Origin: an uncultured delta proteobacterium
GTDB taxonomy: Bacteria > Desulfobacterota > RBG-13-43-22
DNA: 64,000 bases
Assembly: GCA_963843145.1 (NCBI GenBank)
Contig: CAWJJC010000020.1
Span: 160,001-224,000 of the forward strand
Direction: 5' to 3'
Position 1 is the first letter of the stretch. Each line of letters begins with the position of its first letter. Shown piece after piece: positions 5,011 through 44,387 of this stretch. Under the pieces are notes generated by a model. That model ran no database searches. It saw only the letters and a list, made by a program, of their open reading frames with translations, and was not told where the DNA came from. The translations under genes were made by a program, and so were the position numbers.

Positions 5011-7557
5011 TCACTGCTGCCAGAGAATATGAGCGGCCTCCAGGGGAACCGCCACCCCCGGATAGTGGGGTATCAGGCGGGCCGTATAGTCCGTGGCCGG
5101 GCGGTCCGCAGGGACCGCGGCCCGGTAAACATAGCCGCCCGCCGCGCCCGTCAGCGGACGAAGGCGCTTCATCTTCTGCCGCACCGGGCCGTCGTGGTTG
5201 GCGTCTTGGGCATAGAGCTCGACCTCTATGACCTGCGGATCGAGGTCATCGAGATATATTTGAATGTCAAAAACGTGCTGCTCCCCGCTGGATTCCACTT
5301 TCACCTCCCCAAAGCGCAGCGAGACCCAATGCTGTTTTAGGGCCTGCTGCCACTCGACCACCTGCCGGCCCACTGCGCCCTGATCGGCAGCACGTTCACG
5401 AAAGGCGGCCGCGGCCGGAAGATAGTGTTGCTCGGTATATTCGCGCACTGTGCGGTTGGCGGAGAATCGGGGCGTCAACTGCGCCATGCTCTCTCGGACC
5501 CGGGCCACCCAGGCCGTGGGGATACCGTTCTCATCGCGGGCATAATATTCGGGGATGACCTCCTGTTCGAGCAGATCGTAAAGGGTCTCGGCTTCGGCCG
5601 CATCCCAGATCGGATCGCCGTCATGCTCCCGGCCATCCCCCAAGGCCCACCCCACTTCCGGTCGGTAGGCCTCCGCCCACCAGCCATCGAGCTCGGAAAG
5701 ATTGAGGCCGCCATTGACGAGCACCTTCATGCCGCTGGTCCCGCAGGCTTCCCACGGTCGCCTGGGGGTATTGATCCAGACATCCACCCCCTGTACCAAT
5801 TGCCCGGTCATTAGCATGTCGTAGTCGCTCAGAAAGATCACCTGGTTATGGACCTTGTCCCTCCGGATGAATTGCATCCACTCCTGAATCATGTCTTGCC
5901 CGATCCGGTCGGCCGGATGGGCCTTGCCGGCCAGAATCAGTTGCACAGGGCGCCGGGAATCGGTCAGGATACGCCGGAGCCTCTCCGGATCGTGCAGCAG
6001 CAGGTTGGGCCGCTTGTAGGAAGCAAAGCGCCGGGCGAAGCCCAGGGTCAAGGCGTTGGGATCAAAAAGACGTTTCGCCCCTTCCACCTCCTCGGGTGAG
6101 GCGCCCGCGGCCTCCAGTTGCCGGGATAGTCGCTCCCGGACATATTCAATCAGGGACTGGCGGGCGGAGGCCCGGCATTCCCAGAGTCGGGTATCGGGCA
6201 GACCGCGCATGTCTTCCTCCAGGTTCTCCAAGGTTCCCAGCCAGCGGTTTTTTCCGCAAGAGCCTGTCCAGAGGGCATCGGTCTCTTCCGAATCCCAACT
6301 GGACATATGCACCCCGTTGGTCACGTATCCCACCGGCACTTCGTCCTCCGGCCAGCGCGGGAAGAGCCCTTGAAACAAGCGCCGACTCACCTGCCCGTGC
6401 AAGCGGCTGACCCCATTGGCCGCCCCGCTTCCTCGCAAGGCCAGGTAAGCCATATTGAATGGTTCCGAAGAATCGCTCGGGTTTCGACGGCCCAGGGCCA
6501 GTAGCTCGTGCAGCGAGATGCCCAGTTTATTTTGAGCGTACCAGCCGAGATAGCGTTCCATCAGGTCCGGAGGAAAATAGTCAAAACCGGCGCTAACCGG
6601 CGTATGGCTGGTAAAAAGGTTTCCCGCCCGGGTGACGGCCAAGGCGACTTCGAAAGGTTGCCCGGTCTCTTCCATAAAGGCTCGCGCCCGTTCCAACACG
6701 GCGAAGGCCGCATGCCCTTCGTTTAAATGGCAGACTTCGGGCCTGAGGCCGAGGGCGTCCAGCAGACGCCATCCGCCGATGCCCAGGACCAGCTCTTGAT
6801 TGAGGCGCAACTCCGGGCCGCCTCCGTACAATTCACTGGTAATCCCCCGTCGGGACGGAAAGTTGGCCGGATCGTTGCTGTCAAGCAAATACAGCTTCAC
6901 CCGCCCCACCTGGACCTCCCAGGCCCGCAGCCAGACCGAGTAACCGGGCAAGGTCAGCTCCAGCCGCAGCCACTCCCCGTCCGGTTCGCGCAGGGGCCTG
7001 ATCGGCAACTGGCCGGGGTCGTTGTAGGGAAAGAGGGCCTGCTGGGCTCCATCCCGGTCGATGACCTGACGGAAATAGCCCTGCTGGTAAAGGAGTCCCA
7101 CGCCGAACACCGGCACACCTAAATCACTGGCGGTTTTGAGTTGATCGCCGGCCACGTTGCCCAGCCCTCCCGAATAGATGGGCAGCGCTTCGCTCAACAT
7201 GAACTCTAAACTGAAATAAGCGACACCCGTCAACGGGGCGGGCGAATGGTTTTGTTGAAACCAGGCGGGAGAATCCTCCCGGCGGCGCTTGTCTCGTAAG
7301 AGTTCATCCACCTTTTTACGGAAAACGGGTTCCGCCAAGGCCCGATGGAGCTGGTCTCGGGAGATCGTTTGCAGGACGACCCAGGGATTATAGGTGAGTT
7401 GCCAGAGCGCGGGATCAAGCTGCCGCCAGACTTCATCGGCCGAGTGATTCCAATACAAATGCAGGTCCAACGCCAACTCAGCCAAAGAATCGAAACCTTC
7501 GACTTCGATAGGAAAAAAAGTGTAAATCGGGCTGCTGACCCTTTGAGCCTTATCCAT
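5011..7557 (-). CDS. glgP: Alpha-glucan (glycogen/maltodextrin) phosphorylase
   Basis: AYFSLEF, YSGGLG, HLNEGH, TNGVH, FARRFASYKR, GKAHP and the PLP motif EACGTSGMK; 848 aa. Confidence 0.95.
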   Translation of the reverse strand: MDKAQRVSSPIYTFFPIEVEGFDSLAELALDLHLYWNHSADEVWRQLDPALWQLTYNPWVVLQTISRDQLHRALAEPVFRKKVDELLRDKRRREDSPAWFQQNHSPAPLTGVAYFSLEFMLSEALPIYSGGLGNVAGDQLKTASDLGVPVFGVGLLYQQGYFRQVIDRDGAQQALFPYNDPGQLPIRPLREPDGEWLRLELTLPGYSVWLRAWEVQVGRVKLYLLDSNDPANFPSRRGITSELYGGGPELRLNQELVLGIGGWRLLDALGLRPEVCHLNEGHAAFAVLERARAFMEETGQPFEVALAVTRAGNLFTSHTPVSAGFDYFPPDLMERYLGWYAQNKLGISLHELLALGRRNPSDSSEPFNMAYLALRGSGAANGVSRLHGQVSRRLFQGLFPRWPEDEVPVGYVTNGVHMSSWDSEETDALWTGSCGKNRWLGTLENLEEDMRGLPDTRLWECRASARQSLIEYVRERLSRQLEAAGASPEEVEGAKRLFDPNALTLGFARRFASYKRPNLLLHDPERLRRILTDSRRPVQLILAGKAHPADRIGQDMIQEWMQFIRRDKVHNQVIFLSDYDMLMTGQLVQGVDVWINTPRRPWEACGTSGMKVLVNGGLNLSELDGWWAEAYRPEVGWALGDGREHDGDPIWDAAEAETLYDLLEQEVIPEYYARDENGIPTAWVARVRESMAQLTPRFSANRTVREYTEQHYLPAAAAFRERAADQGAVGRQVVEWQQALKQHWVSLRFGEVKVESSGEQHVFDIQIYLDDLDPQVIEVELYAQDANHDGPVRQKMKRLRPLTGAAGGYVYRAAVPADRPATDYTARLIPHYPGVAVPLEAAHILWQQ

Positions 7558-7853: not shown

Positions 7854-8105
7854 TTAGCCGGCGGTTTTAACGTTGGCTACTAACTGGGCAATCTGAAGCC
7901 CCAAACTGACACATTGCTTGCCTTCCATGCAGGTATCGGCATCGATCGGTTCCAGATAGGTTTTAAGATGATGGGCATCCTTATCCAGCTCCACTGTCCA
8001 GGCCTTCTTGGCCTCATCAAAGTCTACCTTGACCTCGATGCCGCATTCCCCCATTTCAGGATAAAGGGATCTGATTCGATCACACAATTCTTTTTTGTCA
8101 TGCAT
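7854..8105 (-). CDS. Small hypothetical protein (83 aa, 4 Cys)
   Basis: Strong RBS (AAGGAGG), its own sigma70-like promoter and protein-like composition; no family recognised. Confidence 0.7.
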   Translation of the reverse strand: MHDKKELCDRIRSLYPEMGECGIEVKVDFDEAKKAWTVELDKDAHHLKTYLEPIDADTCMEGKQCVSLGLQIAQLVANVKTAG

Positions 8106-8236: not shown

Positions 8237-10717
8237 TCAAATATTCCCCGGGATGTTGGCCGCGGCGCTGTTAATTCTCAGGGTATTGGCGACCACGGTC
8301 AGGCTGCTGGCAAACATGGCCAGAACCGCGATCAAAGGATTCAGCAAGCCGGTCATGGCCAGGGGAATTCCCAGCAGATTATAAAAAAAAGCGAAGAGCA
8401 GGTTTTGTCGAATAATCCTAAAACTCACCCTGGCCAGGTGAAACACCTCCTGGATCCTGAGGGGATCAGGGGTTAAGAGCGTAATATCCGCAGCCTCCGA
8501 TAGGATTCCGGCCCTGGTTCCCAGGGCAAAACCCACATCGGCCTGGGCCAGGGCCGCGGCGTCGTTAAGTCCGTCTCCGACCATGCCCACCCGATGTCCT
8601 TTCTGCTGGAGTTCTTTAATGATGCGGACCTTGTCCTGGGCCTGGGCCTGGCCGATATAGGGGTCTATGGCCAGTTCCCGGGCCAGGGCTGCGGTAGTCT
8701 CCAGAGAGTCACCCGAAACCAGCCAGGTCCCAAAACCTTTTTCTTGAAGACCCGAAACGGCCTCACGGGCCGTTTTCTTGAGCGTATCCCCAAAAGCCAG
8801 AAACCCTCGAACCTGTTCCTCCCAGCCGAAGAAAACGACCGTCGCGCCCTGGCTCGACAGGGTCCTGGCCTGCGGCTCAAGAGTCGCGGGGAATATCAGC
8901 CCCTGAGACTGCATCAGATTTCGATTCCCGATGATCACCTCCAGGCCGGCAACCACCCCGCGGACCCCGAAACCGGGGAGTGTCTTAAAATCCTTCACTT
9001 CCTCCGGGCTGAGGGAAAACTCCCGGGACTGGTTTTGAATCTCCCGGGCCAGAAAGTGATCGGAAAAAGCCTCAACCGAAGCAATTTTTTGCCAGGCCTC
9101 CTGCGGCGAGCCTTCGAGGCAAACCATTTCCCGAAAGGAAAAACGGCCTTCGGTTAAGGTCCCGGTCTTGTCGAAGATCAAGACATCCAATTTTCTTATT
9201 TTTTCCAGGGCCGCCGGATCGCGGATGAGGATTCCTTTTCTTCGTCCCTGGCCGATGGCCGCCACCTTGGCCAGCGGGGTGGCAATCCCCAAGGCACAGG
9301 GGCAGGAAATGACCAGTATCGTGACGGCCCGCAGCAGGCTCTCCTCCAGCGAATAACCGCGAGAGGCCAGCACCAGCGCGGTTCCCGCGGCTAAAGCCAA
9401 GAGAGAAGGTACGATCCAGCGGGTCAACCGATCGGCCAAAAGTTCGACCGCGGTCTTCCTGGACAGGCCCTCCTGCATCAAAGTTATGATCTGACCGATT
9501 GAACTTTCCGCTCCCACGCGGGTGGCCCGCAACCTCAGCGGGTGGTCAAGGAGTAAAGCGCCGGCCCGGACCTCCTCATTGAGCCCTCTTTTTATCGGCC
9601 GCGACTCACCGGTCAAATAGGATTCGTCCAGTTTAGCCCGTCCAAAAAGGACCCGGCCGTCTACGGGGACCCTTTCCCCGGCCAGGACCTGAAAATCGTC
9701 CCCGGGTCTTACCTCCTCGGCCGCTCGCCATTCTTCCCCTCTTTCGGTCAGGAGGCGCACTTTTTGATTGGCCAGTTGATAGAGTTCAATCAGACCTTGG
9801 GAGATTTTTTCTCTGGCCTGGGCCTCCAGGTACTTTCCCAGCAGGACCAAAACGATCAGCATCGCGGCCGTATCGAAATAAAGGTGCAGGCTGCCTCGCC
9901 CCATCTGGACCAGGCTGTAAAAATAGGCCGACAGGGCACCAAGGGAAATAAGGACTTCCATGGTGGGATTTCCATGGCGCAATCCGGCCAGGGCCTTTTT
10001 AAAAATGGGAAAGCCCCCGTAAATCAGTACCGGGGTGGCCAGGATCCACAAGGGGTAGGAGAGATAGCCAATGGCCTCCTTCCCCAGATCCTGAAAAAGG
10101 CCGCCGTCAAGGGCCAGGGAGATCATCATCACCTGGACCGTCAGAATGGAGGAAATGCCCAGACGCCGTTGTACTCTTTTTCTTTCCCCTGAGGCCTCCG
10201 CCGGATCCTGAAAGGAAGAGGACCGATATCCCAGCTTGGAAATCCGGTCCCGGATTTCTTCTATCGTCACCTGATGCGGGAGGTATTTAATCCGGACCAG
10301 ATCGGAGGCAAAGAGGGCCTTGACCTCGAGCACTCCCCGAGTCCGCGGCAATACACTTTCAATCAACCAGGAACAAGCGCTACACCACATCCCCTCCAGG
10401 TTTAAGATCAATTCTTTGGCCAGCGCTTCTTCCAGGCCGGAAGCGTTCAAGGCTTGCGGGCCTGCTTCCCCGCCTTGAGCCGGGCTTTGTTCCCGCGCTT
10501 CAGCCTTCCGGCCGATCAGGTCAGCGGCCGCACAAAGACGATAAAGGTCTGAATTTTTCAGGTCGCCGGGAAGACCCCCGGGAAGACTGGTCAGCAGTTG
10601 AAAGACCTGCCGGCAGCCGAAACAACAGAAATGGAAAACCGCTGCTCCCCGCCTTTCCTCTACTCCTGAACGACCGACAGGCAAACCGCATAAGCGACAT
10701 TCCGCTTCAGGACTCAT
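8237..10717 (-). CDS. ccoI: P1B-type copper-translocating ATPase, CcoI/FixI type
   Basis: N-terminal CxxC...CCxGC domain, HMA GMWCSAC, TGES, CPCALG, DKTGTLT, GDGLND, YN and MxxSS Cu(I) motifs; lies at the end of the cbb3 cluster. Confidence 0.9.
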   Translation of the reverse strand: MSPEAECRLCGLPVGRSGVEERRGAAVFHFCCFGCRQVFQLLTSLPGGLPGDLKNSDLYRLCAAADLIGRKAEAREQSPAQGGEAGPQALNASGLEEALAKELILNLEGMWCSACSWLIESVLPRTRGVLEVKALFASDLVRIKYLPHQVTIEEIRDRISKLGYRSSSFQDPAEASGERKRVQRRLGISSILTVQVMMISLALDGGLFQDLGKEAIGYLSYPLWILATPVLIYGGFPIFKKALAGLRHGNPTMEVLISLGALSAYFYSLVQMGRGSLHLYFDTAAMLIVLVLLGKYLEAQAREKISQGLIELYQLANQKVRLLTERGEEWRAAEEVRPGDDFQVLAGERVPVDGRVLFGRAKLDESYLTGESRPIKRGLNEEVRAGALLLDHPLRLRATRVGAESSIGQIITLMQEGLSRKTAVELLADRLTRWIVPSLLALAAGTALVLASRGYSLEESLLRAVTILVISCPCALGIATPLAKVAAIGQGRRKGILIRDPAALEKIRKLDVLIFDKTGTLTEGRFSFREMVCLEGSPQEAWQKIASVEAFSDHFLAREIQNQSREFSLSPEEVKDFKTLPGFGVRGVVAGLEVIIGNRNLMQSQGLIFPATLEPQARTLSSQGATVVFFGWEEQVRGFLAFGDTLKKTAREAVSGLQEKGFGTWLVSGDSLETTAALARELAIDPYIGQAQAQDKVRIIKELQQKGHRVGMVGDGLNDAAALAQADVGFALGTRAGILSEAADITLLTPDPLRIQEVFHLARVSFRIIRQNLLFAFFYNLLGIPLAMTGLLNPLIAVLAMFASSLTVVANTLRINSAAANIPGNI

Positions 10718-10805: not shown

Positions 10806-11519
10806 TTAAACCAGGAGCTTCGCGCCCTGGTAGATCAGGATCAGCCCCATAAAAATGACGGAAAAAGCGGCCAGTCGCTCCCCGATAAGTCTCGTCCGCA
10901 GGGTGAACAGGGAAGTGGAGATTCCCAGGCCCAAAAGAGCGGGTACCGTGCCCAGGCCAAAAGCCACCATGGTCATAAAGCCTTCCGCCATATTTCCTGT
11001 GGTGGCGGCCTTGATGAGCAGGGAACAGGATAGGCAGCAAGGCAGAAGCCCGCTGGCCAGTCCCAGGGCCATCTTGGAAGCTGAACCGGGAGATTGAAAC
11101 AGGAAAGGAAGGAGGCGGCTCCAGAGGGAACGAGGCGTCAAGGAAAATCGGGCCAAAAGACCCGGCAGGGGAATGACCCTCAAGAAGACCATTCCCAACA
11201 GCGTAATCAGGAACCCCCCGGCCAGGATGACCCCGCCGCGGATATTGAGATGTAAATTGAAGCCGGAGATAGTAAAGAGGCCCGCGGCCAGGCCGCCCAG
11301 GATTCCGTAGGTCATCAGCCTGCCGAAATGATAGGCCAGGTGATGAGAAAATCCTTTGGCCCAGGAAGAGGAATCCAAGCCCACGACCCGGGGTTCCAGG
11401 CTTTTAATGTGCACCGAATAGGCCAGGACCAGGGGGCCGCACATCCCCAGACAATGCAGGCTGCCGAACAATCCGATCAGGAACGGGGCCAGAAGCTCGA
11501 TAATCCAGGGAGCGTCCAT
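10806..11519 (-). CDS. DsbD_2/TauE-like membrane protein associated with cbb3 oxidase assembly
   Basis: GSLHCLGMCG, YHFGR..TY, GLLPC, FGLGTVP motifs. Confidence 0.85.
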   Translation of the reverse strand: MDAPWIIELLAPFLIGLFGSLHCLGMCGPLVLAYSVHIKSLEPRVVGLDSSSWAKGFSHHLAYHFGRLMTYGILGGLAAGLFTISGFNLHLNIRGGVILAGGFLITLLGMVFLRVIPLPGLLARFSLTPRSLWSRLLPFLFQSPGSASKMALGLASGLLPCCLSCSLLIKAATTGNMAEGFMTMVAFGLGTVPALLGLGISTSLFTLRTRLIGERLAAFSVIFMGLILIYQGAKLLV

Positions 11520-11528: not shown

Positions 11529-12089
11529 TCAGCGGATAGCGGTCGGTTGGAAACCCGTCCGGCCCCCTTCATTTTTTTCTTTAGCCCGGGCCCTCAGATA
11601 ATGGATGACGGCCCAGCGGTCTTCCGCGCCGATGGTGGCATACAAGGGGGGTTGTCTCTTATGGCCCAGACTGATCTTGTAAAACAGTTCTCCGTCGCTC
11701 TGAGTCTGCACTTTGGGATCCAAAAGATAGGTGGGTAAAGGATAAAAGCTTTGACCCACCGTGGCCTTCCCGTCGAGCCCGGGGCCATGACAGTGCACAC
11801 AGTAATAGAGATAACTTTTCTTTCCCTGGCCTACCACAGCCGGGGTCATCGGCAAAGGGTTGATCAATTGTTTAGGGTTTGATCTTCTCAAGGTCTCGAT
11901 GCCCCCGCCTAGCGGAATAGTCCCTGTGGGCATGATCGGCAGGGAAAGCTGAAAGGTATTGATGGCTTCGTCATCCCTCATCCGGCCGTAGTAGTTGCTG
12001 ATCAGGATGGAAAGGAAAAAGAAAGAAAAGGCCAAAAGACCCACAACCAGACCGGTGATTAAGAAGGCTTTTCTCCCCGACACGATCAC
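11529..12089 (-). CDS. actE: Membrane-anchored monoheme cytochrome c, ActE-like
   Basis: N-terminal TM, M..D.....MPTGTIP segment, CVHCH, SDGELFYKIS, DRWAVIHYLR; GTG start overlaps the upstream stop. Confidence 0.72.
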   Translation of the reverse strand: MIVSGRKAFLITGLVVGLLAFSFFFLSILISNYYGRMRDDEAINTFQLSLPIMPTGTIPLGGGIETLRRSNPKQLINPLPMTPAVVGQGKKSYLYYCVHCHGPGLDGKATVGQSFYPLPTYLLDPKVQTQSDGELFYKISLGHKRQPPLYATIGAEDRWAVIHYLRARAKEKNEGGRTGFQPTAIR

Positions 12090-12355
12090 CGTCCTCCCCG
12101 TCCGCCGGTTTTTTCGGTCTTACCGCTGGGGCCCATCACATGTTGTTGCCGAATCCCTTCCCCTTCTTCCCCAGGAGCCGTGCCGGCCCGTTTTTCTGCC
12201 CCACGGACCGAATAGACTGACTGGCCGGGCACATCGGCGATGGTCCCGTAGCGCCAGGGGGGCGGCCAATGAACCCCGACGACGGAAAAAATAAAGAGCC
12301 CCCAGAGTAAAAAGCCCAGGGCCACGGCCAGTACGATGACCCAACTCCTGGCCAT
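12086..12355 (-). CDS. Small single-TM hypothetical protein
   Basis: RBS AAGGAGG, ATG 12355, MARSWVIVLAVALGFLLWGLFIF...WPPPWRYGTIADVPGQS; stop overlaps the next start (GTGA). Confidence 0.7.
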   Translation of the reverse strand: MARSWVIVLAVALGFLLWGLFIFSVVGVHWPPPWRYGTIADVPGQSVYSVRGAEKRAGTAPGEEGEGIRQQHVMGPSGKTEKTGGRGGR

Positions 12356-12419
12356 TGATCCCTCCTTTTCCGGGGGAACAGCGGCCTGACTTTTGTCGAT
12401 CAGGTTGTTGGCCTTCAGG

Positions 12420-12700
12420 CTACCCAATGGCCTTTCCTCCCAGTCCGACCAGGATCAAGTAGGCCAGGGCCCAGACGATGACCGCCAGGTAAGCCATAAT
12501 AAGAAATGGCGGCACGGGGTTATCGTCCTTCTTCTGTTCCTCCCCGGACCCCACCCCTCAGGCTCGAGTTCCGCTCCGCCTACCTCCGGCGGGGCCGGGG
12601 GATAAAAGGTCCAGGCCGCATAGAGAAGGACCAGAGTCCCCAGCCCCAAAAAAAAGGCCAGGGCCATATCCTGCAAGGTGGTCAAAGGGAAATAGGGCAT
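12420..12700 (-). CDS. Small two-TM protein resembling the CcoP/FixP N-terminal anchor (frameshift in a G-run near 12555)
   Basis: MPYFPLTTLQDMALAFFLGLGTLVLLYAAW...EPEG, then in the shifted frame EEQKKDDNPVPPFLIMAYLAVIVWALAYLILVGLGGKAIG*; the DNPxP plus TM pattern resembles FixP_N. Confidence 0.6.
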
Positions 12701-12709
12701 GGCCGCACC

Positions 12710-12964: not shown

Positions 12965-12965
12965 C

Positions 12966-34532: not shown

Positions 34533-34542
34533 CCCCGGCCCC

Positions 34543-36999
34543 CTAACGATCGATATCCGGCATGATATAGTCAATGGAGCCGATAATGGCCAGCAGGTCG
34601 GACAACAGGCCGCCGCGAGCCATCAAAGGCATGGCCTGCATGTTGGCAAACCCGGGGGTCCGGATCCGCATCCGGTAGGCCCGAGGCAGACCGTCACTGA
34701 CCACGTAGTAGCCCTGTTCCCCGCGGGGGGCCTCCACCGCGGCATAGGCCTCCCCGCGGGGGATTTTCGGCCCCCGGGTGACATTGACAAAATGATGAAT
34801 AAGGCTTTCAATATCCCTCAGGGTATCGGTTTTCCGAGGAACGGTGTAGCGGTAGTCCTCACTGCCATACCGGCCGGCCGGCATCCTCCGGACGGCCTGT
34901 TCGATGATCCGCAGGCTCTGGCGCAGTTCCTCGACCCGCACCCGGTAACGGGCGTAGCAGTCCCCTTCCCTGGCCGTGGGAATATCAAAATCAAAATGCT
35001 CATAGGAGGAATAGGGGAATTGCTTGCGCAAATCCCAATCGAGGCCGCAGGCCCGCAGGTTGGGACCGGTCACCCCCCAATCCATGGCCTCCTCCAGGGA
35101 CAAGGGCCCGACGCCGCGGGTTCGGGCCTCAAAAATAGGGTTCCGGGTAGCCAGGGCTTCATACTCTTTGATCCGCTCCGGGAAAATCTTCAGGAAGGCC
35201 TCAATCGGTTCTTTCCAGCCCTGCGGCAAGTCGTCAGCCACCCCCCCGATTCGGAACCAGGAGGGATGGAGCCGACCTCCGGTGATCAGCTCGATAATAT
35301 CCATAACCTTTTCGCGGTCCCGAAAGGTGTAAAAAACCGGACCAATGGCGCCCACGTCCTGCAGGAAGGTGCCGAACCAGACCAGGTGATTGCTCAGTCG
35401 AAAAAATTCACCAAGCAGCACCCGGATGTATTGCGCCCGTTCCGGGACCTGGATCCCGGTTAGAATTTCAACCGAATTCAAGTAAGCCAGGTTATTGTAC
35501 ACCCCGGAAAGATAATCCACCCGGTCGGTGTAGGGGATGAATTGATGCCAGGACTGGTGCTCGCCGATTTTTTCCACCGAACGGTGGTGATAGCCGATGT
35601 CCAGGTCGATAGCGGAAATCCTTTCGCCCTCCAGGGAAAGGATGAAACGTATCAGGCCGTGAGAGCCCGGGTGATGAGGACCCAGGTTCAGGATCATTTC
35701 CCGGCCCTCTTCCCCGGCTTGGCGGACGAGGATGCCGGCGTCCAGAGGCTGGTATTTTTCGGCCTCGGCCCTGGTGTAGGGGGCCATCTCGGTGGCCCGG
35801 CCCGGATAATCCTTTCGTAAGGGATGGCCTTCCCAGTCGTGGGGGAGGAGAATCCGGCGCAGATCCGGATGTCCTTGAAAGCGGATTCCGAAGAGGTCAA
35901 AGACTTCCCGCTCGTACCAGTTGGCCGAGGGCCAGATATCGGTGATGGTCGGGGTTACCGGGTTTTTATCGGCTAGAGGAACCTTGAGACGAAGACGCCC
36001 GGCCGGTTCGAAGGACAGTAAATGATAAACCAGCGTATACGCCGGGTATTCTTGGGGGTCCGGACGGGGAGGCTTATCCCGGACTATTTCTTTCCCCACC
36101 GTGCCGTCTTCGATCTCGAAATTCCCCTGGCCCCGTCGGGCCGATTCATCCACAGCAGTCAGATCATCCAGGCGTAGGAACCTGGGACGGGATTCGGTCT
36201 TCAGGAAACGGAGGACCTCTTTAATCCGGTCCCCGGCGACCTCAAAGGTGGCCATATCCGAGGTTTGGGGAGTCTGGTTGAGGGCCTCGCCGAACTTTTC
36301 CTTTAGCACCGCGGCCAAGGAGCGGTCCCGGTCCGTCAGTTCTATTCTGCGGGGCGGCGGCGTCCACATCAGGTCGGAGCGGCTATCCCAAAATCGAGGA
36401 GGGGTGACGGAGGTGCCTCGGACAGGCAGGCCTTCATAGCCCGGCCCCCGGGTATCCCTGGATTTTGTCTGCCCATCGACCAGCACGGGTTTTTGAGACC
36501 CTTGAGTCCCTCCGGGCAGATGGAAAATCGAACGACTCGGCCTTTCCGACCCGATCTTCTTTTGCAGCAGCAGCAATCCCTGCAAGACGGCCTCCGGCCG
36601 AGGCGGGCAACCCGGAATATAGACATCTACGGGCAAAATTTGATCAATGCCCTGGACCACGCTATAGCCATCATACATCCCGCCGCAGTTGCTGCAGGAG
36701 CCCATGGAGATCACCCATTTCGGTTCAGGCATCTGCTCATAAAACCGCAGGATCGCCGGCGCCACTTTTTTAAAAATGGTCCCCGAGGTGATCAGGAGAT
36801 CGGACTGGCGGGGGGAACCGCGCAGGACCTCGGCCCCAAAACGGGCCATATCATAGCGGGGGGTCAGGGCCGTCGACTCCTCGATGAAGCAGCAGGAAAG
36901 TCCAAAAAAGGCGGGCCAGAGGGAATACTTCCGCGACCAGTTGACCAGCAGGTCCAAGCGGTCCAGCGCTTTATTTTTGAGCTGATCGAAGGGTTTCAA
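34543..36999 (-). CDS. nuoBCD: Fused complex I subunits B-C-D
   Basis: GLSCC, SPRQSD, GCPPRPE (B); [18 protein letters not shown] (C); [24 protein letters not shown] (D), all in one 818-aa ORF. Confidence 0.95.
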
Positions 37000-37405
37000 G
37001 GCCCGCTACCCACTCCAATCCCCGTTTCTTCCAAATATAATAAAGGCCGGCCAGCAGGAGCACAATGAAACCGGAAATCTGGAGCCAGCCGGACCAGCCC
37101 AGCTCCAGGATGGCCACGGCCCAGGCGAAAATAAAGACCGCCTCGACATCGAAAATAAGGAAAAAAACGGCCACCCGGTAAAAAGGAACGGGATAGGCGA
37201 GCCGCGCCGGTCCGCTGGGGATCAGCCCGCATTCAAAGGGCAGCTCTTTATTCGCGTTGGTTTTCTTTTCTCCCAGCCAGGAAGCAAGAAAAAGAAGGAG
37301 GACCACCAAGGCCAGGATCATCAGGCCGTAAAGAAAAAGGGCCGCGAAACCCGGTTCCCAGGGGGTTAACGTACCGGCAGTGTCTAAAGGCTGCATCGTT
37401 ATCAT
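36971..37405 (-). CDS. nuoA: Complex I subunit A
   Basis: [15 protein letters not shown], 3 TM; ATG 37405 overlaps the tal stop (ATGA). Confidence 0.92.
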
Positions 37406-38268
37406 TTCAGCAACAAAGAGTTCCAATCCTTGGAAAAACCGTTCATCCCCTTGATCGTCAGCTCATGGCTCAGATCAAATTCCTGCCAGGGTCGACTGAG
37501 GTCGATCTCCCGATAAGGGATCGCTTTTAAGCCCCCGGCAGCGTAATCAACCCCCGCCTCGGGAAGGGGAAGTCCCTGGTCGCCCCATTCCTTCAAGATG
37601 GCCGCGGGTGCGGTGATGATATCCGATCCCAGCTTCAAGGCATAAAGCAGATGATCTCTGGTTCTGACGCTGGCGCTCAGAACTTCCACATGGCCGTCTC
37701 CCGGCCCATACATCTGGAGAATGTGGGCGATCAGGTCCATTCCGTTTTCTCCCCGATCATCCAAACGGCCGATGAAGGGCGAGACGAAGACCTCCCCCTT
37801 CTTGGCCCCCCGGGTGGCCGCGTAAACGGCGGCCGCCTGCTCCTGGGAAAAACAGAGGGTCATATTGACCCGCAGCCCTTTTTGGACGGCCCCTTCGGCG
37901 GCCGTCAGCCCTTCCCGGGAAGTGGGAAATTTGATGTGGGCGTTGGGGATCCAGGAAAACATTTCCTGGCCCTGGACCAACATCCTTTCCGCCGGGGTGG
38001 CCGGGTCGGCATAGACTTCAATGGAGACGGACCCCTGAGGAATCAGCCTGGAGATCTCTCCGACCACCTGCCGGTAGAAGTCCAGGATCTCTCTTTCGCT
38101 GAACTTCCCCCCCTGGTCCAAATGCCGGCGCGCTTCCGGGTTTTTGGAGATGAGCGTCGGATTGGTCGTCTGACCGTCGAGGAATCCCAAACGACTGATG
38201 ATTTCCCTGGTTTCCTCCGGATTTCCCCCGTCGAGGAATATACGGCTCTTCAGCTTCTCCGGTCTCAT
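37402..38268 (-). CDS. tal: Transaldolase
   Basis: FLDG, TTNPTLI, SIEV (Glu), IKFP, NMTLCFS, SPFIGR (Phe); the Glu/Phe pair favours transaldolase over fructose-6-phosphate aldolase. Confidence 0.88.
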   Translation of the reverse strand: MRPEKLKSRIFLDGGNPEETREIISRLGFLDGQTTNPTLISKNPEARRHLDQGGKFSEREILDFYRQVVGEISRLIPQGSVSIEVYADPATPAERMLVQGQEMFSWIPNAHIKFPTSREGLTAAEGAVQKGLRVNMTLCFSQEQAAAVYAATRGAKKGEVFVSPFIGRLDDRGENGMDLIAHILQMYGPGDGHVEVLSASVRTRDHLLYALKLGSDIITAPAAILKEWGDQGLPLPEAGVDYAAGGLKAIPYREIDLSRPWQEFDLSHELTIKGMNGFSKDWNSLLLK

Positions 38269-38309: not shown

Positions 38310-39866
38310 CTATTTTTCCTTTCCCTCCCCGACCTCACAACGCTGCAGGGCCTCATGGTAATGATGCAGATTGGGCATCAGCCAACTGCGGCCATCCCGG
38401 GCGATTAAATGTTCGGCGGACTCCGGCCCCCAGGTGCCGACCTGATAATTGGGAAAATTTGCGGGTACCACCTCTTCCCAGGCTTCCAAAATAGGCGTAA
38501 TAACATTCCAGGCCGCTTCCGCCTGATCCGCGCGCATGAAGAGCGTGGCATTGCCCAGCATGACATCCAGAAGCAAGGTTTCGTAGGCCTCCGGAGAGGA
38601 GACCTTAAAGGCCTCCTGATAATAAAACTCCATATCCACCGGGCTCAGACGCAAGGCCTGACCCGGGTGTTTGGCCTGAAGGCGAAGCAGAATGCCTTCC
38701 AGCGGCTGGATGGAAATAAGCAGGCGATTCGGCCGCCAATCTAAAACTGTCGAGGAAGGGAAGATCTGATGGGGGACCGGCCGAAACTGGATATTGATCT
38801 CCGAAACCTTGGCCGGCAGGCGTTTTCCGGTACGTAAATAAAAGGGAACATCCTGCCAGCGCCAGTTGTCCACAAAGAGTTTGAGGGCGGCATAGGTCTC
38901 GGTCGAGGATTCGGGAGAGACGTTCACTTCGCCGCGATAACCGGGGACGTGTTCTCCCTCGATCCAGCCGGCTTCGTACTGGCCGCGGGCGGCAAATTTG
39001 TGTATCTCATCGATCGGAATAGGCCGGATGGCATGGAGGACATCCACCTTTTTATTCCGGATTTCATTGTCGTCAAAGGAGATCATGGGTTCCATGGCCA
39101 TCAGGCAGAGGACCTGGATAAGGTGATTCTGGATCATGTCGCGGAGCGCCCCGGCCTGTTCATAGTAATGGCCGCGCTGTCCGACTCCTACCTGCTCCGC
39201 CACGGTAATCTGCACATGATCAATGTAGCGTCGGCTCCAAATGGGCTCAAAGAGGGCATTAGCAAACCGGAAGGCCAGGATATTTTGGACGGTCTCCTTC
39301 CCCAGATAATGGTCAATGCGGTAAATCTGGGATTCGTCAAAGATCCGCGTCAGAAGCTTATTCAAAGATTTGGCCGAGGCCAGGTCCCGGCCGAAAGGTT
39401 TTTCGATCACAATCCGGGTTCGCTCCCGTTCCAGGGGGATCCGGGCCTTGCCCAACTGCTCCACCACGGTCTCAATGGCTTGCGGCGGCACGGCCAGATA
39501 AAGGATACGGACGGCCTTGACGCCCCATTCCTTATCCAGGGTGGAAAATTGTTTAGCCAGTTGGGAATAAATCGGGGGGGCGTCGAATTCGGCGTCCTGG
39601 AAGGTCAGGTGAGCGGCAAAGGCCTTCCATTTCCGGCCATCGGTTTCCTTTCGCCGGGAGAACTGGATCACCCCCTGACGTAACTGTTCAATCAACGCCT
39701 TGTCGCCCTGGGATTTGTGGCCCAGGCCGATAACCAGGAATTTTTCAGGCAACCACTGATCCAGAAAGAGATCATAGAGGGCCGGAATCAGCTTGCGCCG
39801 GGCCAGGTCGCCGCCCATGCCGAAGATAACAAAGACCGTCGATTGGGGATGGAGTTCAGCCGACAA
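38310..39866 (-). CDS. zwf: Glucose-6-phosphate 1-dehydrogenase
   Basis: GxxGDLA, EKPFG, RIDHYLGKE, RDMIQNH, LRTGKR; TTG start with AAGGAG RBS. Confidence 0.96.
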   Translation of the reverse strand: MSAELHPQSTVFVIFGMGGDLARRKLIPALYDLFLDQWLPEKFLVIGLGHKSQGDKALIEQLRQGVIQFSRRKETDGRKWKAFAAHLTFQDAEFDAPPIYSQLAKQFSTLDKEWGVKAVRILYLAVPPQAIETVVEQLGKARIPLERERTRIVIEKPFGRDLASAKSLNKLLTRIFDESQIYRIDHYLGKETVQNILAFRFANALFEPIWSRRYIDHVQITVAEQVGVGQRGHYYEQAGALRDMIQNHLIQVLCLMAMEPMISFDDNEIRNKKVDVLHAIRPIPIDEIHKFAARGQYEAGWIEGEHVPGYRGEVNVSPESSTETYAALKLFVDNWRWQDVPFYLRTGKRLPAKVSEINIQFRPVPHQIFPSSTVLDWRPNRLLISIQPLEGILLRLQAKHPGQALRLSPVDMEFYYQEAFKVSSPEAYETLLLDVMLGNATLFMRADQAEAAWNVITPILEAWEEVVPANFPNYQVGTWGPESAEHLIARDGRSWLMPNLHHYHEALQRCEVGEGKEK

Positions 39867-39875: not shown

Positions 39876-41295
39876 TTATTCCGTGGTCCATTGGGTGTGG
39901 AAGATGCCCGGTCCATCAACCCGTTCATAGGTGTGGGCCCCGAAGTAATCCCGCTGGGCCTGAATGAGATTGGCCGGTAACCAGGGACTGCGAAGGCCGT
40001 CATAATAGGCCAGTGAGGCCATCAGACCAGGTACGGGGATTCCCAGCTCAACGGCGGTCGTTATCACCGTTCGCAAGGCATCCTGGCAGGGCTTCATCCG
40101 TTCGGCCAGATCAGGATCCAGGAGGGGATGGATCAAGTCCGGTTGAACCCGGTAGGCGGCCAGTATTTTTTCCAATAGAAAAGCCCGAATGATACAGCCG
40201 CCGCTCCAGATACGAACCACTTCCCCCAGATCCAAACCATAGTGATAGGTCCGGGAGGCCTTTCGGAGCAGGGTCAGACCCTGACCATAGGTCAGAATCA
40301 ACCCCCCATAAAGGGCTTCGCCGAGTTGGGCGATAAATCCTTCCCGCTTCCCCTGAAAAGGGAGGATACTCCTCTCCCGGCATCCGGCTGACGGCTTGCC
40401 TTTCCTGTTTACAACCGGACAGGTCCCGCATGACCACAGCCAGATCGATGGTGGGCACCGGTACCTGCAATTCCAGGGCATTCACGGAAGTCCACATTCC
40501 GGTCCCTTTTTGCCCGGCCTGATCCAGAATCTTATCGATCAAGCGGCCTCCGCTCTTCTCATCCTCCTGACGAAAGATCCGGGCGGTAATCTCGATTAAG
40601 TAGGCCTGGAGCTCGGTCTGATTCCAACGGTCGAAAATCAAAGACAAGGCATCGTTGTTCAAACCCAGTCCCTGTTTGAGAAGCTGGTAGGTCTCGGCGA
40701 TCAATTGCATGAAGCCGTATTCAATCCCGTTATGGACCATTTTAACATAGTGGCCGGCCGAACCGGGGCCCAGGTGGGCAACACAGGGGATATCCTTCAC
40801 CTTGGCGGCGATGGCCTCGAGGATCGGACGCACCCGTTCATAGGCTTGCGGAGTCCCGCCGGGCATCAGACTGGGACCGTAGCGGGCGCCTAACCCTCCT
40901 CCGGATATACCCAGTCCCAGATAAAGAAAACCCTTTCCGGCCAGTTCCCGCTCTCGACGATCGGTATCGCTGAAAAAGGAATTGCCGCCATCAATAATCA
41001 AGTCGTTTGGTTCCAGAAGGGGTAGAAGCTCCTGGATCAGCTCGTCCACCGGCCGGCCCGCGGAGATCAGCATCAGGACGGCCCGGGGTTTACGCAGGCG
41101 GCCCATGAATTCAGACAGGCTGTAGCCGGTTCCGATGGACCGCCCGGCGCCCTCCGTCTCCATAAATTCCTTTGTTTTTTCAGCCGTCCGGTTGTAGACC
41201 GCGATGGGAATTCCCTGGTCGGCAATATTTAGGGCCAGATTACGCCCCATCTCACCCAGACCAATCAGACCGATCTCATATTGATGTTCGCTCAT
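39876..41295 (-). CDS. gnd: 6-phosphogluconate dehydrogenase, decarboxylating, NADP-type (frameshift near 40370)
   Basis: GLGEMG, YNRT, DGGN, KMVHNGIEY, QKGTG; the second frame gives IWSGGCIIR and QAQRDYFGAHTY. Confidence 0.93.
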
Positions 41296-41380
41296 GTTTG
41301 CTCGCCTTTTCAAATAGCTACCTCAAAGGTTCCCCTTTCAGCCCCCATTTGACCAAGCGGGCCGGAGGGGATATATCAAC

Positions 41381-41455: not shown

Positions 41456-42031
41456 TCATCCGCCATCCCTCAAATCGGTTCGCTTTCCGTCCGACGCCGG
41501 ATAAGTAATTTTATACCCCTGGACCTGGGCCCAGGCAGTGAGCAGGTGTTCCCGAGATTCGTCCGCTTTGAAAAGATGAGTCACCGGAATTCCCCGCACC
41601 AAAAGGGCATCGGCGATAAGTGACCTATGGCAGCGCCAGGGCAGAGTTTCCGCGCAGAGGAGGGTCAGGGTATGTTGGGAAGCCATTTCGATAAGGTCGT
41701 TTAGGTTTGACTCAAATTCATCCGTCTGCAGGTAATCGGCAAAGCCTCGGAAAGAGGCATTGCGCCAGCCCGTATTCGAGGAATCGGGACGTGCCTTCCT
41801 TAAGCCTCCCAGACCGGGCTTATGGAGATACCCGATCCCTTGTGAGCGCAGACTGTCCGGCAGCGTTTCCTGGTTGAATTGGGGATTGTGTCTCGACCGC
41901 GGGATGGTCCGAACATCAACCACCAGATCAATACTAAAGGATTGAAGAATGGCCATAAACAGCTCAAGAGGTCTGGTTCCATGCCCCAGGGTGAAAATCC
42001 GAGAGGCCTTCGAGCGAACTTTGCCGGGCAT
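41456..42031 (-). CDS. DUF488 family protein
   Basis: IFTLGHGT, VDVRTIPRSR, LGG, LLCAE..PWRCHR. Confidence 0.9.
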   Translation of the reverse strand: MPGKVRSKASRIFTLGHGTRPLELFMAILQSFSIDLVVDVRTIPRSRHNPQFNQETLPDSLRSQGIGYLHKPGLGGLRKARPDSSNTGWRNASFRGFADYLQTDEFESNLNDLIEMASQHTLTLLCAETLPWRCHRSLIADALLVRGIPVTHLFKADESREHLLTAWAQVQGYKITYPASDGKRTDLRDGG

Positions 42032-42046: not shown

Positions 42047-44387
42047 TCATTTATGCCATTCATTCTTACGCCTTCCGTCTCCTATATCGACTATTCCCTT
42101 AGCAGGACCTCTCCCTGACGAATCGGCCTGGGGCGATCGGAGTGTTTCTCGATAAGTAATCAGGGCGGCCATGACCATGGGCACCACTCCCAGAAAGATA
42201 AAAATCAGGTCTCCGGGCATACGGCACCATTCGATGAAGCGCACAAAATCCTGGGTGACATAGGCCAGGCCCCGGGCGTGCCAGTACCCGTTTTGCAGCA
42301 CATCAACGAATTGCAGGACCCCGCCGGGAAATAAGTTTCCCAGGACCATCAGCGCCAGACCCAGGTTCAGCCCCCAGAAGGAAACCCGGATAAATTTTTC
42401 CGCTCGAACCCAGGCTTCGTCTTTCAGCACCTGACGGAAGGCCATGACGGTCAAGGCCATGGCCTCCATACCGAAAGCCCCCATCAGGGCGCTGTGGGCA
42501 TGGTTGGGCGTCAGCATCGTCCCCACCTCGAAATAACTGATGATGGGCAGGTTGATGAGAAACCCGAAAATCCCGGCCCCGACAAAATTCCAGAACCCCA
42601 CGGCCATTAAAAAATAAAAGGTCCACTTATGCGGCAGGGTCCTGGAGTGTCGCCTCCCCGGGTCACCTTGGACAAAATCCCAGGCATCCAGGGTCAGGAG
42701 AGTCAGCGGCACCACCTCCATGGCCGAAAACAGGGCCGAGAAGGCCAAATTAAAAGTAGGACTGGCCGGTCCAGTACCAGTGATGCCCGGTGCCGATGAT
42801 ACCGCTGCCCAGAAAGAGGATGGCATCCAGATAAATGACCCGGACCGCGGTCTGCCGGGAAACCAGCCCCATTCGGAAGAAAGTCACCGCCACCATGACC
42901 GTCACCAGCAGTTCCATGAACCCTTCCACCCAAAGGTGGATGATCCAAAAACGCCAGTTATCCACCAGGGTGTAGTTGGTGGTGCTGCCGAAAAAAAAAG
43001 CCGGCAGGTAAAAGAGGGGAATGGTTCCTGCCGCCACCAGGAAAAGGAGCGAGATTTCGCGGCGTTCCGGGTCGTTTAGGGCCGGTCTTACCTGGCGCCA
43101 GAGCAGAATGACCCAAACCGCCAGTCCAACGGCCAACAGCACCTGCCAGCCTCTGCCCAGATCCAGGTATTCCCATCCTTGGTGGCCGAACCAGAACCAG
43201 TACTTTCCCAGGAGATTATTGATTCCCAGGAACTCCCCCAGGAGGCTCCCCCCGACCACCAACACCAGGGCCCAAAACAGAAAATGAATACCTGGAATTT
43301 GTCCCCGGTGCTCTCCGCCATCCAAGGATGAAGCCAGCAGCAGCCCGCCTCCGATATAGGCGGTGGTGATCCAGAAAAGGGCCAGTTGCAGATGCCAGGT
43401 GCGCAAGATATTGCTCGGAAAAATCTGGTAGAGGTCAAACCCGTAAAAACTTCCCGGTTCTGCCCGTGAATGGCCTACCGCGGCGCCTATCAAGGTTTGG
43501 GCCAGAAAGAGCAGGGCCACAACGACGAAAAATTTGATGGTGGCCCGTTGGCTTGGCGTGGCCAGTCCCGGCAACAGGGCGGGATTGGGCCTAGGCGCCC
43601 CTCTCCAGCCCAGGTAGCTGAACTTGCCGAGGGCAAAGAGAATGGCGGCTGTCCCGGCCAGCAGGGTTATCAGGCTCAGGGCACTCCAGAGATAAACCTC
43701 TGGCGTCGGGGTGTTACCCACCAGCGGGTCATAGGGGAAATTATTGGTATAAGAATAAGACCGGCCGGGACGCCGGGTTACAGCGGCCCAGGCAGTCCAG
43801 GCAAAAAAGGCTGTAAGTTGCCGCAGCTCGACCGGGTCTTGGATATACTTGGCCTTCAAGCCTCCATTGAGGGCCGGGTGGACGAAATAATCCGTCCAGC
43901 GGACCACCTGCCTTTGAAAGGACAGTTCCTCGGGCCTTTGAAACAGCAAAATTCGGGTTCGGGGATCATAGCGGTTTTCTTTGAGCAGCTCCCGGGTCCG
44001 AGCCTTCAGCGCCTCGTTTTCTTCGGGAAGCAGCTCCGGGGGATTCCGGCCGAAGCCAGAACGGGCCAGGAAGAAGCCGGTATCCAGCGCTAGGGTATGC
44101 AGATATTCGGCTGAGAAGTCCGGTCCCAGGTAGGCGCCGTGTCCCCAGATGGTGCCGTTTTCCATCAGCCCATACTTGAGGAAGACCTGCTGGCCGGCCC
44201 GGATGTCCTCACCGGTAAAGAGGGTCTCCCCAGCTTCGTTGACCACTTTAGCGGGGACAGGCGGCGCCCCTCGGTAGGCTAAGATGGCAATCCAGCCCTG
44301 GATGCCGAAACAGACCAAGAGGATAAAGATGACGGCCCGCCGCCACCAGGGAGAGACTTCCTCGCTCTGTTGTTCCTGATCTACCAT
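42047..44387 (-). CDS. norB: Quinol-dependent nitric oxide reductase qNOR (+1 frameshift near 42760)
   Basis: GTIWGHGAYLGPDF, SYTNNFP, TWHLQL, IHLWVEG..E, GTGHH; after the shift SAMEVVPL and HAHSAL. Confidence 0.92.

Follow-up and report, generated by a model that had tools for sequence, protein, structure and literature searches.

The window analysed here, a stretch of 64,000 nucleotides of DNA (G000:C20:160001-224000; G denotes genomes, C contigs, L loci, and X sequencing runs), comes from an uncultured delta proteobacterium. Its own metagenome-assembled genome (MAG), G000, has a size of 5.35 Mb in 32 contigs and is 97.9% complete and 6.9% contaminated. The window carries a supercluster of 40-50 kb with genes for the oxidation of sugar phosphates, complex I, alternative complex III (ACIII), and a cbb3-type oxidase, which we regard, with moderate confidence, as an optional kit for respiration under micro-oxic conditions, driven by the oxidation of sugar phosphates. 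The preliminary description of this DNA had placed every gene that it named, between 5011 and 44387, on the minus strand. A Pfam scan confirmed this, and the minus-strand run is wider, extending from 2394 to 47877. Pfam families matching the earlier gene list were assigned to 33 of the 35 minus-strand open reading frames (ORFs) at 2394-44387; two small ORFs have no family, and none of the 14 large plus-strand ORFs within the stretch matches any Pfam family. All of the genes named earlier are present, and a DsbD_2 gene and several conserved small ORFs have to be added to them. The nuoA-N genes and ccoO were also recognized correctly, except that nuoB, nuoC, and nuoD form one fused gene and ccoO extends into a cytochrome c domain. 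A single frameshift interrupts each of nuoN, gnd, and the quinol-type NO reductase gene (qNOR).

In the order of transcription, the genes are qNOR, DUF488, gnd, zwf, tal, nuoA, nuoBCD, nuoE-N, a 65-aa ORF, actB, actC, actD, actF, actA, ccoN, ccoO-cytochrome c, ccoS, three small conserved ORFs, an actE-like gene, DsbD_2, ccoI, an 83-aa ORF, and glgP (Table 1). They are tightly packed, with many overlaps of 4-32 bases; larger gaps follow nuoN (333 bases), separate nuoG from nuoF (362), precede DUF488 (142), and flank the 83-aa ORF (131 and 296). The supercluster can be read as four modules. The first would be gnd, zwf, tkt (lost here), and tal, joined by translational coupling to the genes of a complex I with 14 subunits, NuoBCD being fused, and the second ACIII interleaved with an intact cbb3 oxidase and the maturation genes ccoS, DsbD_2, and ccoI. 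The third would comprise the variable edges, formed by qNOR and DUF488 on one side and by a second alpha-glucan phosphorylase on the opposite side, and the fourth the prenyl-quinone-type biosynthesis genes just outside 5011-44387.

Table 1. Features of the supercluster and its surroundings, with window coordinates and the profile matches or other observations behind each assignment
Feature	Coordinates	Strand	Evidence and remarks
Accessory alpha-glucan phosphorylase, glgP-like	5011..7557	-	PF00343, PF11897 (DUF3417); TIGR02094 799.5 bits vs 191.7
83-aa Cys-containing small protein	7854..8105	-	No Pfam/NCBIfam match; 89-98% copies between glgP and ccoI in G002, G003, G005
CcoI-type copper P1B ATPase	8237..10717	-	E1-E2_ATPase, Hydrolase, HMA; TIGR01511 442 bits
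DsbD_2 membrane thiol-reductant protein (cytochrome c/cbb3 maturation)	10806..11519	-	PF13386 134 bits; kept in block
ActE-like monohaem cytochrome c	11529..12089	-	One CxxCH; Cytochrome_CBB3 26.4 bits, just below cut-off
113-aa membrane protein	12086..12427	-	No family match; tblastn 49-79% in 11/11 relatives
44-aa FixP_N-like ORF (CcoP N-terminal helix/CcoQ-like)	12420..12554	-	PF14715 24.6 bits vs cut-off 24.9; in 5/11 relatives
CcoS/FixS maturation protein	12710..13090	-	PF03597 28 bits; TIGR00847 27.8 bits
CcoO with C-terminal monohaem cytochrome c domain	12966..13964	-	FixO PF02433 114.2 bits vs 29.6; Cytochrome_CBB3; two CxxCH
CcoN, cbb3-type catalytic subunit	13943..15325	-	COX1 269.5 bits
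ActA multihaem cytochrome c	15341..15889	-	Cytochrome_C7; four CxxCH and terminal CxxxCH
ActF (NrfD-like)	15886..17148	-	PF03916
ActD	17117..17824	-	PF11821 127.5 bits
ActC (NrfD-like)	17640..18968	-	PF03916 89.3 bits
ActB (molybdopterin-like and 4Fe-4S fusion)	18971..21958	-	Molybdop_Fe4S4, Molybdopterin, Fer4
65-aa zinc-ribbon-like protein, nuoN-actB interval	22043..22240	-	Two Cys pairs; no Pfam match
nuoN, two frames	22574..24147	-	PF00361; C-terminal 84 aa in another frame, break near 22828
nuoM	23997..25478	-	PF00361/PF00662 (joint for nuoM, nuoL)
nuoL	25567..27441	-	PF00361/PF00662 (joint for nuoM, nuoL)
nuoK	about 27472..27780	-	PF00420
nuoJ	27774..28292	-	PF00499
nuoI	28348..28902	-	Fer4 families
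nuoH	28908..29978	-	PF00146
nuoG	29906..32374	-	Fer4_Nqo3, NADH-G_4Fe-4S_3, Fer2_4, Molybdopterin
Dispersed repeat in nuoG-nuoF spacer	32375..32736	.	139 blastn matches in genome; depth spike in runs X3, X5
nuoF	32737..34242	-	Complex1_51K, NADH_4Fe-4S; true start probably internal
nuoE	34038..34574	-	2Fe-2S_thioredx
Fused NuoB-NuoC-NuoD, 818 aa	34543..36999	-	PF01058, PF00329, PF00346; NF009808 1371.9 bits vs 1156
nuoA	36971..37426	-	PF00507
Transaldolase-family tal	37402..38268	-	PF00923 145 bits
nuo-linked glucose-6-phosphate dehydrogenase (genome's second zwf)	38310..39866	-	TIGR00871 607.9 bits
6-phosphogluconate dehydrogenase gnd, two ORFs	39876..41313	-	PF00393 profile positions 1-125 and 134-290; break near 40400-40480
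DUF488 protein	41456..42031	-	PF04343 114 bits
qNOR, quinol-type NO reductase, two ORFs	42047..44387	-	PF22085 183.7 bits; COX1; no CxxCH
DUF2231-cytochrome c	44688..45410	-	Pfam
SRPBCC protein	45564..46127	-	Pfam
UbiB-like kinase	46189..47877	-	TIGR01982 435.8 bits, below 487.55
MIPS-type cyclase	48467..49675	+	Pfam above cut-off; TIGR03450 only 43 bits
Xylose-isomerase-like TIM barrel	49584..50543	+	Profile matches
UbiE/MpqE-like methyltransferase	50560..51375	+	Best model MpqE 276.7 bits (cut-off 335); UbiE 276.0
Second methyltransferase	51344..51982	+	Profile matches
Cytochrome b5-DUF2231	51992..52705	-	Pfam
Divergent UbiA-family prenyltransferase	52718..53671	-	Pfam; no defined subfamily, best 58.9 bits vs 269

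By Pfam, the complex I set is complete, comprising the 14 subunits A-N with the NADH module NuoE, NuoF, and NuoG. The 3' end of tal overlaps the start of nuoA by 25 bases, which ties the pentose-phosphate genes to the complex I operon and supports their translational coupling to nuoA. The oxidative pentose phosphate pathway (PPP) is incomplete in the locus: zwf and the frameshifted gnd are present, and pgl is absent from the window. The genes pgm, pgl, and tkt, which the preliminary description had noted as absent from the window, were located elsewhere in the genome. The pgm gene lies on C17 and is 60-69% identical to pgm of G020; pgl (TIGR01198, 200.5 bits) lies on C32 beside the other zwf; and a canonical tkt is found at C21:135032, with an rpiB-like gene on the same contig. 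The C32 zwf is 43% identical to the nuo-linked one, and similar copies are spread across the family. Two glycogen-synthase-type genes (glgA, Glyco_transf_5) are also located outside the window. No match for ackA or phosphoketolase was found in G000. A second nuo locus, which the preliminary description had envisaged, does exist; it is unfused, has EF-like genes, and is located at C28:740-753 kb. An unfused nuo is present in all five genomes tested, which makes the fused-NuoBCD complex I an extra. An Ech-like locus was detected on C25.

The host lineage is a small class-level group of Thermodesulfobacteriota represented by MAGs only; searches at the family and the class level returned the identical 21 genomes. 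Nine of these encode an orthologue of the fused NuoBCD (81-92% identity). An orthologous zwf (76-79%) is present in eight of the nine, with a remnant in the ninth (G003), and in none of the other 12. The distance between zwf and nuoBCD is 5-6 kb, on one contig, in G000, G005, G013, G018, G019, and G020. The PPP-nuo block of G020 is richer and, according to Pfam, also includes pgl, pgi, pgm, ackA, and rpiB, together with a 729-aa ORF that resembles phosphoketolase by eye only. Among the 23 loci that have a full fused NuoBCD and at least 8 kb of upstream flank, zwf or gnd was found there in three (L015, L016, and L019), L016 being a close relative (83% identity).

Some variation of the nuo loci can be noted. 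In G018:C41 (L128) and G019:C4 (L118-L119), insertions of ~5.3 kb and ~19 kb, respectively, separate nuoI from nuoH in an otherwise colinear operon. In G020:C10 (L093-L095), an unfused nuo of the housekeeping type, 41-53% identical, is located 7-21 kb upstream of actB, and the fused-NuoBCD cluster is on another contig. In L020, L022, L025, L026, and L027, from MAGs with Syntrophobacteraceae or Desulfarculales titles, the fused NuoBCD is followed directly by nuoH, without nuoE, nuoF, and nuoG, and they represent the same complex I lineage in an 11-subunit form. The repeat in the nuoG-nuoF spacer is ~224 bases long and has inverted ends of 32 bases; a further match of 41 bases is found at 8192-8232.

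All six ACIII subunits are encoded in the second block: ActB, the two NrfD-type subunits ActC and ActF, ActD, the pentahaem ActA, and the monohaem ActE. Their order is not the canonical actABCDEF; instead, actB-C-D-F-A is followed by the cco genes and then by actE, and the same order is seen in 11 of 11 relatives and five distant genomes. ActB orthologues are present in 12 of the 21 class genomes (72-79% identity). The block is colinear from actB-C-D-F-A-ccoN-ccoO to actE in all 11 relatives with ActB, with a constant position of the actE-like gene, and continues to dsbD2 and ccoI, its last gene, in the ten whose contig is long enough. It is colinear also in G041, G044, G045, G306, and G281. 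The supposed absence of ACIII from G002 was rejected as an assembly effect, since G002 has the genes from glgP to ccoN and its contig ends inside ccoN. Among the 401 genomes sampled across the phylum, 55 have an ActB homologue. The 65-aa zinc-ribbon-like ORF has the same place in G003 and G005 and lies elsewhere in G018 and G019; the 65-aa and 83-aa Cys-rich proteins show 65-98% identity in relatives.

The ccoO gene overlaps ccoN by 22 bases, and no separate ccoP was found in the block. In a phmmer alignment to P. stutzeri CcoN (3MK7_A; positions counted by eye), CcoN keeps H60, H207, H257, H258, H345, and H347, the six His that bind haem b, haem b3, and CuB, as well as the cross-link Tyr Y251; a cofactor-less CcoN was rejected on these residues. 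Both subunits fall below the curated equivalog cut-offs (ccoN, 276 bits vs 583.15 for TIGR00780; ccoO, 105.8 vs 200.65 for TIGR00781), which marks the predicted oxidase as a divergent branch of the cbb3 family but one that is catalytically equipped. The best NCBIfam matches of ActB and ActA are QrcB, QrcC, and QrcA of the Qrc menaquinone reductase of Desulfovibrio, all below the cut-off. Qrc was rejected in favour of ACIII by subunit content, since the combination of two NrfD-type subunits, an ActD domain, and ActE in the window is that of ACIII; G000 also has a Qrc-like locus elsewhere, at C28:133-136 kb. DUF488, qNOR, ActD, ActF, the small ORFs, and cytochrome b5-DUF2231 have no NCBIfam family.

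The proposed kit would work as follows. Under micro-oxic conditions, sugar phosphates, probably derived from glycogen, would be oxidised by the nuo-linked Zwf and Gnd, and the reduced nicotinamide cofactor would be used by complex I to form quinol. The quinol would be oxidised by ACIII, with electrons passing through the c-haems of ActA, ActE, and CcoO to the cbb3 oxidase, which would reduce O2 and pump protons; qNOR, where present, would remove NO. The gene identities, metal ligands, operon coupling, co-occurrence, and synteny can be read directly from the genomes, and from them we infer which way the electrons flow, that glycogen is the source, which cofactor is used, and any co-regulation. 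The preliminary description had proposed a chain of this kind from glycogen to O2 and NO. The ligands, the coupling, the nuo-ACIII-cbb3 order in a distant MAG, and the presence of pgm, pgl, tkt, and two glgA elsewhere in the genome agree with it; it is supported in part, as the locus is not conserved as one unit.

Several observations weigh against a common function. In G018, G019, and G020, the two main blocks are carried by separate contigs of 141 kb to 2 Mb, and the picture of one conserved unit is not borne out; contact between the blocks within the class is limited to G000, its congener G003, and G005 from a sister genus. In G011, ~15 kb of sequence upstream of actB contain no nuo, four ActB genomes have no fused NuoBCD, and G012 has a fused NuoBCD and no detectable ActB. 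The glgP-like gene adjoins ccoI only in G000, G002, G003, and G005. An orthologue also occurs in G014, a genome in which neither ActB nor fused NuoBCD was found, and none was detected in G007, G008, G011, G013, and G020, all of which have ActB. Orthologues of qNOR occur in only four of the 21 genomes (G000, G018, G019, and G020), and the gene is frameshifted here. Gnd carries an NRT motif, which we take to be a signature of the NADP type, and the PntB transhydrogenase was not found in the 97.9% complete genome. Decay could lie behind the missing tkt and the three frameshifts of this copy, and the electrons from complex I could just as well enter the menaquinone pool that serves sulfate respiration. 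Promoter and terminator scans hint at a transcription break, only between nuoN and actB, where a terminator-like hairpin (22576-22556) and a promoter-like site (22028-22001) accompany the 333-base gap. These scans performed no better than shuffles, with 9 promoter-like sites vs 8.1 expected and 47 terminator-like sites, mostly within genes, vs 30.8 expected. The modules, each conserved alone, were inherited separately, and the stretch is a patchwork of them.

Functional independence of the blocks is the main rival explanation. In that case, the PPP-nuo block would be an anaerobic sugar-phosphate unit feeding NADH into menaquinone for sulfate respiration, ACIII-cbb3 would serve separately in O2 detoxification, glgP and qNOR would be mere neighbours, and the 40-kb same-strand run in this genus would be a product of rearrangement. 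The unlinked blocks, their partly independent occurrence (four genomes with ACIII only and one with nuo only), the occurrence of glgP independently of both, the likely transcription break, and the ackA and by-eye phosphoketolase of the G020 block, which suggest fermentation-type chemistry, all fit this explanation. We nevertheless consider it rather unlikely, given that the fused-NuoBCD block is found in eight of the 12 ActB genomes and that a housekeeping nuo is already available in the genome. Moreover, in the distant MAG G045 (locus L028, from a Desulfobacteraceae-titled record), nuoA-nuoN lead into actB-C-D-F-A-ccoN-ccoO-ccoS-actE at 42-68% identity (no PPP genes are found up to 10 kb upstream), and quinone-type genes adjoin either block in different genomes, tying the two together.

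Complex I oxidises NADH. The nuo-linked Zwf was compared in eight class proteins (nine rows, L016 repeating G020), and all eight have Gly at the position of E. coli K18. At the position of R50, His is found in all eight and in two distant proteins, L015 and L019 (positions matched by eye from the primer sequences in PMC4807051); the unlinked C32 paralogue keeps Arg. According to the available text of that paper, K18 and R50 of the E. coli enzyme bind the 2'-phosphate, the double mutant cannot tell NADP+ from NAD+, and a group of glucose-6-phosphate dehydrogenases with His for R50 exists, about whose meaning the authors are cautious (PMC4807051). The replacement of both NADP-phosphate-binding residues hints that the linked Zwf may be able to make NADH.

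The host is a sulfate-reducer-type bacterium. This follows from dsrB, which exceeds the curated cut-off in five of the five class genomes tested (G000, G003, G005, G019, and G020), from the two copies of cydA in G000, and from the lack of haem-copper oxidases in G000 other than the two inside the window. The host is not an ordinary aerobe, the case which, according to the preliminary description, would have undone its proposal. A contig of an aerobe binned into this MAG by mistake would also explain the respiratory genes; the contamination estimate of 6.89% and the location of dsrAB on a different contig (C3, not C20) leave a very slight chance of this. The same blocks, at 72-96% identity, are present in up to 12 other class genomes, dsrB was found in every genome tested, and the flanking genes are syntenic with those of G002. 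The closest relatives of NuoBCD outside the class come from records titled Thermodesulfobacteriota, Desulfococcaceae, Syntrophobacteraceae, and Desulfobacteraceae, and the GC content is 57.3%, compared with 54.3% for the genome. On this composition, a classical genomic island was rejected as well, and no integrase or transposase was detected among the Pfam hits of the window proteins.

The copy in G000 has its own defects. At the nuoN break, a run of six C stands where G005 has seven; at the gnd break, one base is extra relative to G003, in a poorly conserved linker; and in qNOR, DNA alignment to relatives shows one extra base amid a small substitution cluster at ~42755-42760. Among the contigs of four DNA runs, none covers the gnd site and one covers the qNOR site: this short-read contig of run X5, 96.5% identical over 349 bases, is without one base at 42759. 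Similar breaks are found in the assemblies of relatives (pgi, pgm, and ackA in G020; ccoN, actB, nuoG, nuoF, and nuoBCD in G003). Because of the C6/C7 homopolymer, the X5 contig, and the breaks in these assemblies, the three frameshifts are probably assembly errors. In all six relatives compared, a transketolase gene (tkt) separates zwf from tal, and only a 41-base spacer (38269-38309) remains here; the junction is bridged by a contig of run X1, which is maybe the source sample and so not independent.

The stretch could accordingly be a decaying relic, in which qNOR, gnd, and nuoN are pseudogenes, tkt is deleted, and the chain is dead in this genome and maybe working in relatives. Three frameshifts in 39 kb, the substitution cluster around the qNOR break, and the bridged loss of tkt speak for decay. 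This is improbable in view of the nuoN homopolymer, typical of read errors, the similar breaks in relatives, the X5 contig without the extra qNOR base, the canonical tkt on C21, and the remaining ~30 genes, which are intact. In G003, zwf is truncated, its first ~70 residues running up to a stop (the match spans 85 to 95). Thus, G000 and G003, of one genus, have lost different genes of the same operon (tkt and zwf, respectively).

The two edges of the supercluster, glgP and qNOR, are loosely attached options and not fixed parts. The glgP-like gene exceeds its family cut-off and is predicted to encode an alpha-glucan phosphorylase. A paralogue 35-40% identical to it is located at G000:C16, and a 40% identical paralogue is present in 20 of the 21 genomes. 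Ten genomes have the orthologue proper (74-96%), and G003 has a fragment of it at a contig end. In G010, G017, G018, and G019, the orthologue is carried by other contigs, so that this first step of the chain proposed earlier is unlinked in two genomes with the PPP-nuo block (G018 and G019), and it occurs also in G012. The qNOR product has a NorB core and an N-terminal cytochrome-c-like domain without a haem c site, as expected for the quinol-type enzyme. Its gene does not form a single intact frame here, and the open frames of relatives are 762-764 aa in length. Where present, qNOR is always within ~25 kb of the PPP-nuo block and adjoins DUF488, which accompanies it in G018, G019, and G020; G003 and G005 have no qNOR at the corresponding place.

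Genes resembling those of prenyl-quinone biosynthesis are found at 44688-53671. The cyclase, the TIM barrel, and the two methyltransferases form one plus-strand operon (48467..51982). In the ESM Atlas, the UbiA-like protein falls into generic UbiA clusters only, commonest in Thermodesulfobacteriota. G000 has other UbiE-like (35%) and UbiB-like (34%) copies on C3 and C27, and the window copies are therefore extras. The UbiE-like orthologue is present in all 12 ActB genomes and in none of the other nine class genomes; the UbiA-like orthologue occurs in 12 genomes, 11 of which belong to the ActB/UbiE-like set. The quinone-type genes lie beside actB in G007, G008, G017, and G020, beside nuoN in G018 and G019, and at the qNOR/gnd end in G000, G003, and G005. 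Outside the class, they flank ACIII-cbb3 in G041, G044, G306, and G281, and the cytochrome b5-DUF2231 and UbiA-like genes neighbour actB or ccoI in G020, G008, G017, G041, G306, and G281. Across the phylum, the UbiE-like gene was found in 84 of 401 genomes, in 37 of 55 with ActB vs 47 of 346 without it, an association that the Fisher value overstates, relatives not being independent; in 11 genomes, it is located within 40 kb of actB on one contig.

The supercluster might even produce its respiratory quinone itself, from sugar phosphate, and would then be self-sufficient as an aerobic kit, a doubtful proposal based on gene context (co-occurrence in 12 of 21 genomes and a set adjoining ACIII or nuo in six lineages). 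In this proposal, the MIPS-type cyclase and the TIM barrel would build the ring from glucose-6-phosphate, the pool common to GlgP and Zwf. The divergent UbiA-like enzyme would prenylate it, and the UbiE/MpqE-like and second methyltransferases would methylate it, with the UbiB-like kinase, the SRPBCC protein, and the two DUF2231 cytochromes as helpers. A sugar cyclase, a TIM barrel, and UbiA are combined in ebo-type clusters. The window likewise has a sugar-phosphate cyclase, a TIM barrel, and a UbiA-family protein, but the cyclase is of the MIPS type and not EboD. A likeness to the methyl-plastoquinone (Mpq)/ubiquinone core, as given in the available text of PMC11874023 (MpqA/B/E), can be seen in the UbiA-family, UbiB-like, and UbiE-type (best MpqE) proteins and the second methyltransferase; the window cluster differs in having no decarboxylase or hydroxylase. 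The Mpq assignment fails on the MpqE score (276.7 vs 335), the lack of an MpqA-type match, and a UbiB-like protein below the TIGR01982 cut-off. According to the same available text, the Mpq pathway occurs in aerobic Nitrospirota only (PMC11874023).

Other genes were found at the two ends of the window. At 2-2063, upstream of the locus, there are a HAMP-PAS fragment and a PAS-GGDEF diguanylate cyclase, syntenic in G002 and 91-97% identical; in G018, GGDEF-like genes lie between zwf and DUF488. These PAS/GGDEF proteins may sense O2 or the redox state for the locus. An efflux operon at 55082-62327 (TetR, an HlyD-type adaptor, two ABC ATPases, two ABC-2 permeases, and an outer-membrane factor) is unrelated to the supercluster.

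Each module is of a known kind. ACIII gene clusters followed by a haem-copper oxidase (ACIII-caa3 or ACIII-cbb3) are known, and the six Act subunits directly beside oxidase genes are shared with them. The window differs in the cbb3 genes placed between actA and actE, in the CcoO-cytochrome c fusion, and in the complex I and PPP genes upstream. In the dark respiration of cyanobacteria, electrons pass from glycogen through the oxidative PPP, NDH-1, and plastoquinone to an oxidase. The logic of that chain (phosphorylase, Zwf/Gnd/Tal, a relative of complex I, a benzoquinone, and an oxidase) is the same as in the preliminary description, and the phylum differs; cyanobacterial NDH-1 is without NuoEFG, cytochrome b6f takes the place of ACIII, and the genes do not form a single locus.

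Van Niel and Gottschal, in 1998, reportedly dealt with polyglucose-fuelled O2 reduction in Desulfovibrio. The available text of PMC4287179, citing Fareleira et al. 1997, describes such O2 reduction via Embden-Meyerhof glycolysis. The likeness lies in a sulfate reducer with a stored glucan as reductant for O2, but the evidence there is physiology and here genes alone; the same text describes no oxidative PPP-complex I-ACIII-cbb3 locus. Among other sulfate reducers, as far as the available texts go, Desulfofaba has cbb3 and bd oxidases (PMC10116758), and the sulfate-reducing acidobacterium MAG CO124 respires O2 and up-regulates ACIII and a terminal oxidase under oxic conditions (PMC10564751). 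Both combine dissimilatory sulfate reduction with membrane oxidases, as here; CO124 differs in having no cbb3 and in belonging to another phylum, and linked PPP, complex I, ACIII, and cbb3 genes are not described in these texts for either (PMC10116758, PMC10564751).

The preliminary description held the assembled locus to be undescribed, and a limited literature search found no description of a PPP-nuo-ACIII-cbb3 locus. Nor did it find the coupling of an oxidative PPP operon to a fused-NuoBCD complex I or its recurrent joining to ACIII-cbb3. What appears new is the coupling of zwf and tal with nuoA at the operon level and the consistent loss, in the nuo-linked Zwf, of two NADP-phosphate-binding residues. 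The interest of the supercluster lies chiefly in the ecology of sulfate reducers and in a possible dedicated quinone.

Most models of soils, wetlands, and sediments take sulfate reducers to be strict anaerobes. If the proposed function is correct, a widespread optional set of a proton-pumping complex I, ACIII, and a high-affinity cbb3 oxidase working on sugar-phosphate oxidation would allow these bacteria to conserve energy during oxygen pulses, and metagenome readings of sulfur and carbon turnover at oxic-anoxic interfaces would change. The quinone-type genes travelling with ACIII point to an unexamined electron carrier; if the quinone proposal holds as well, Thermodesulfobacteriota would gain a benzoquinone-type, higher-potential carrier for ACIII-cbb3 without an aromatic precursor.

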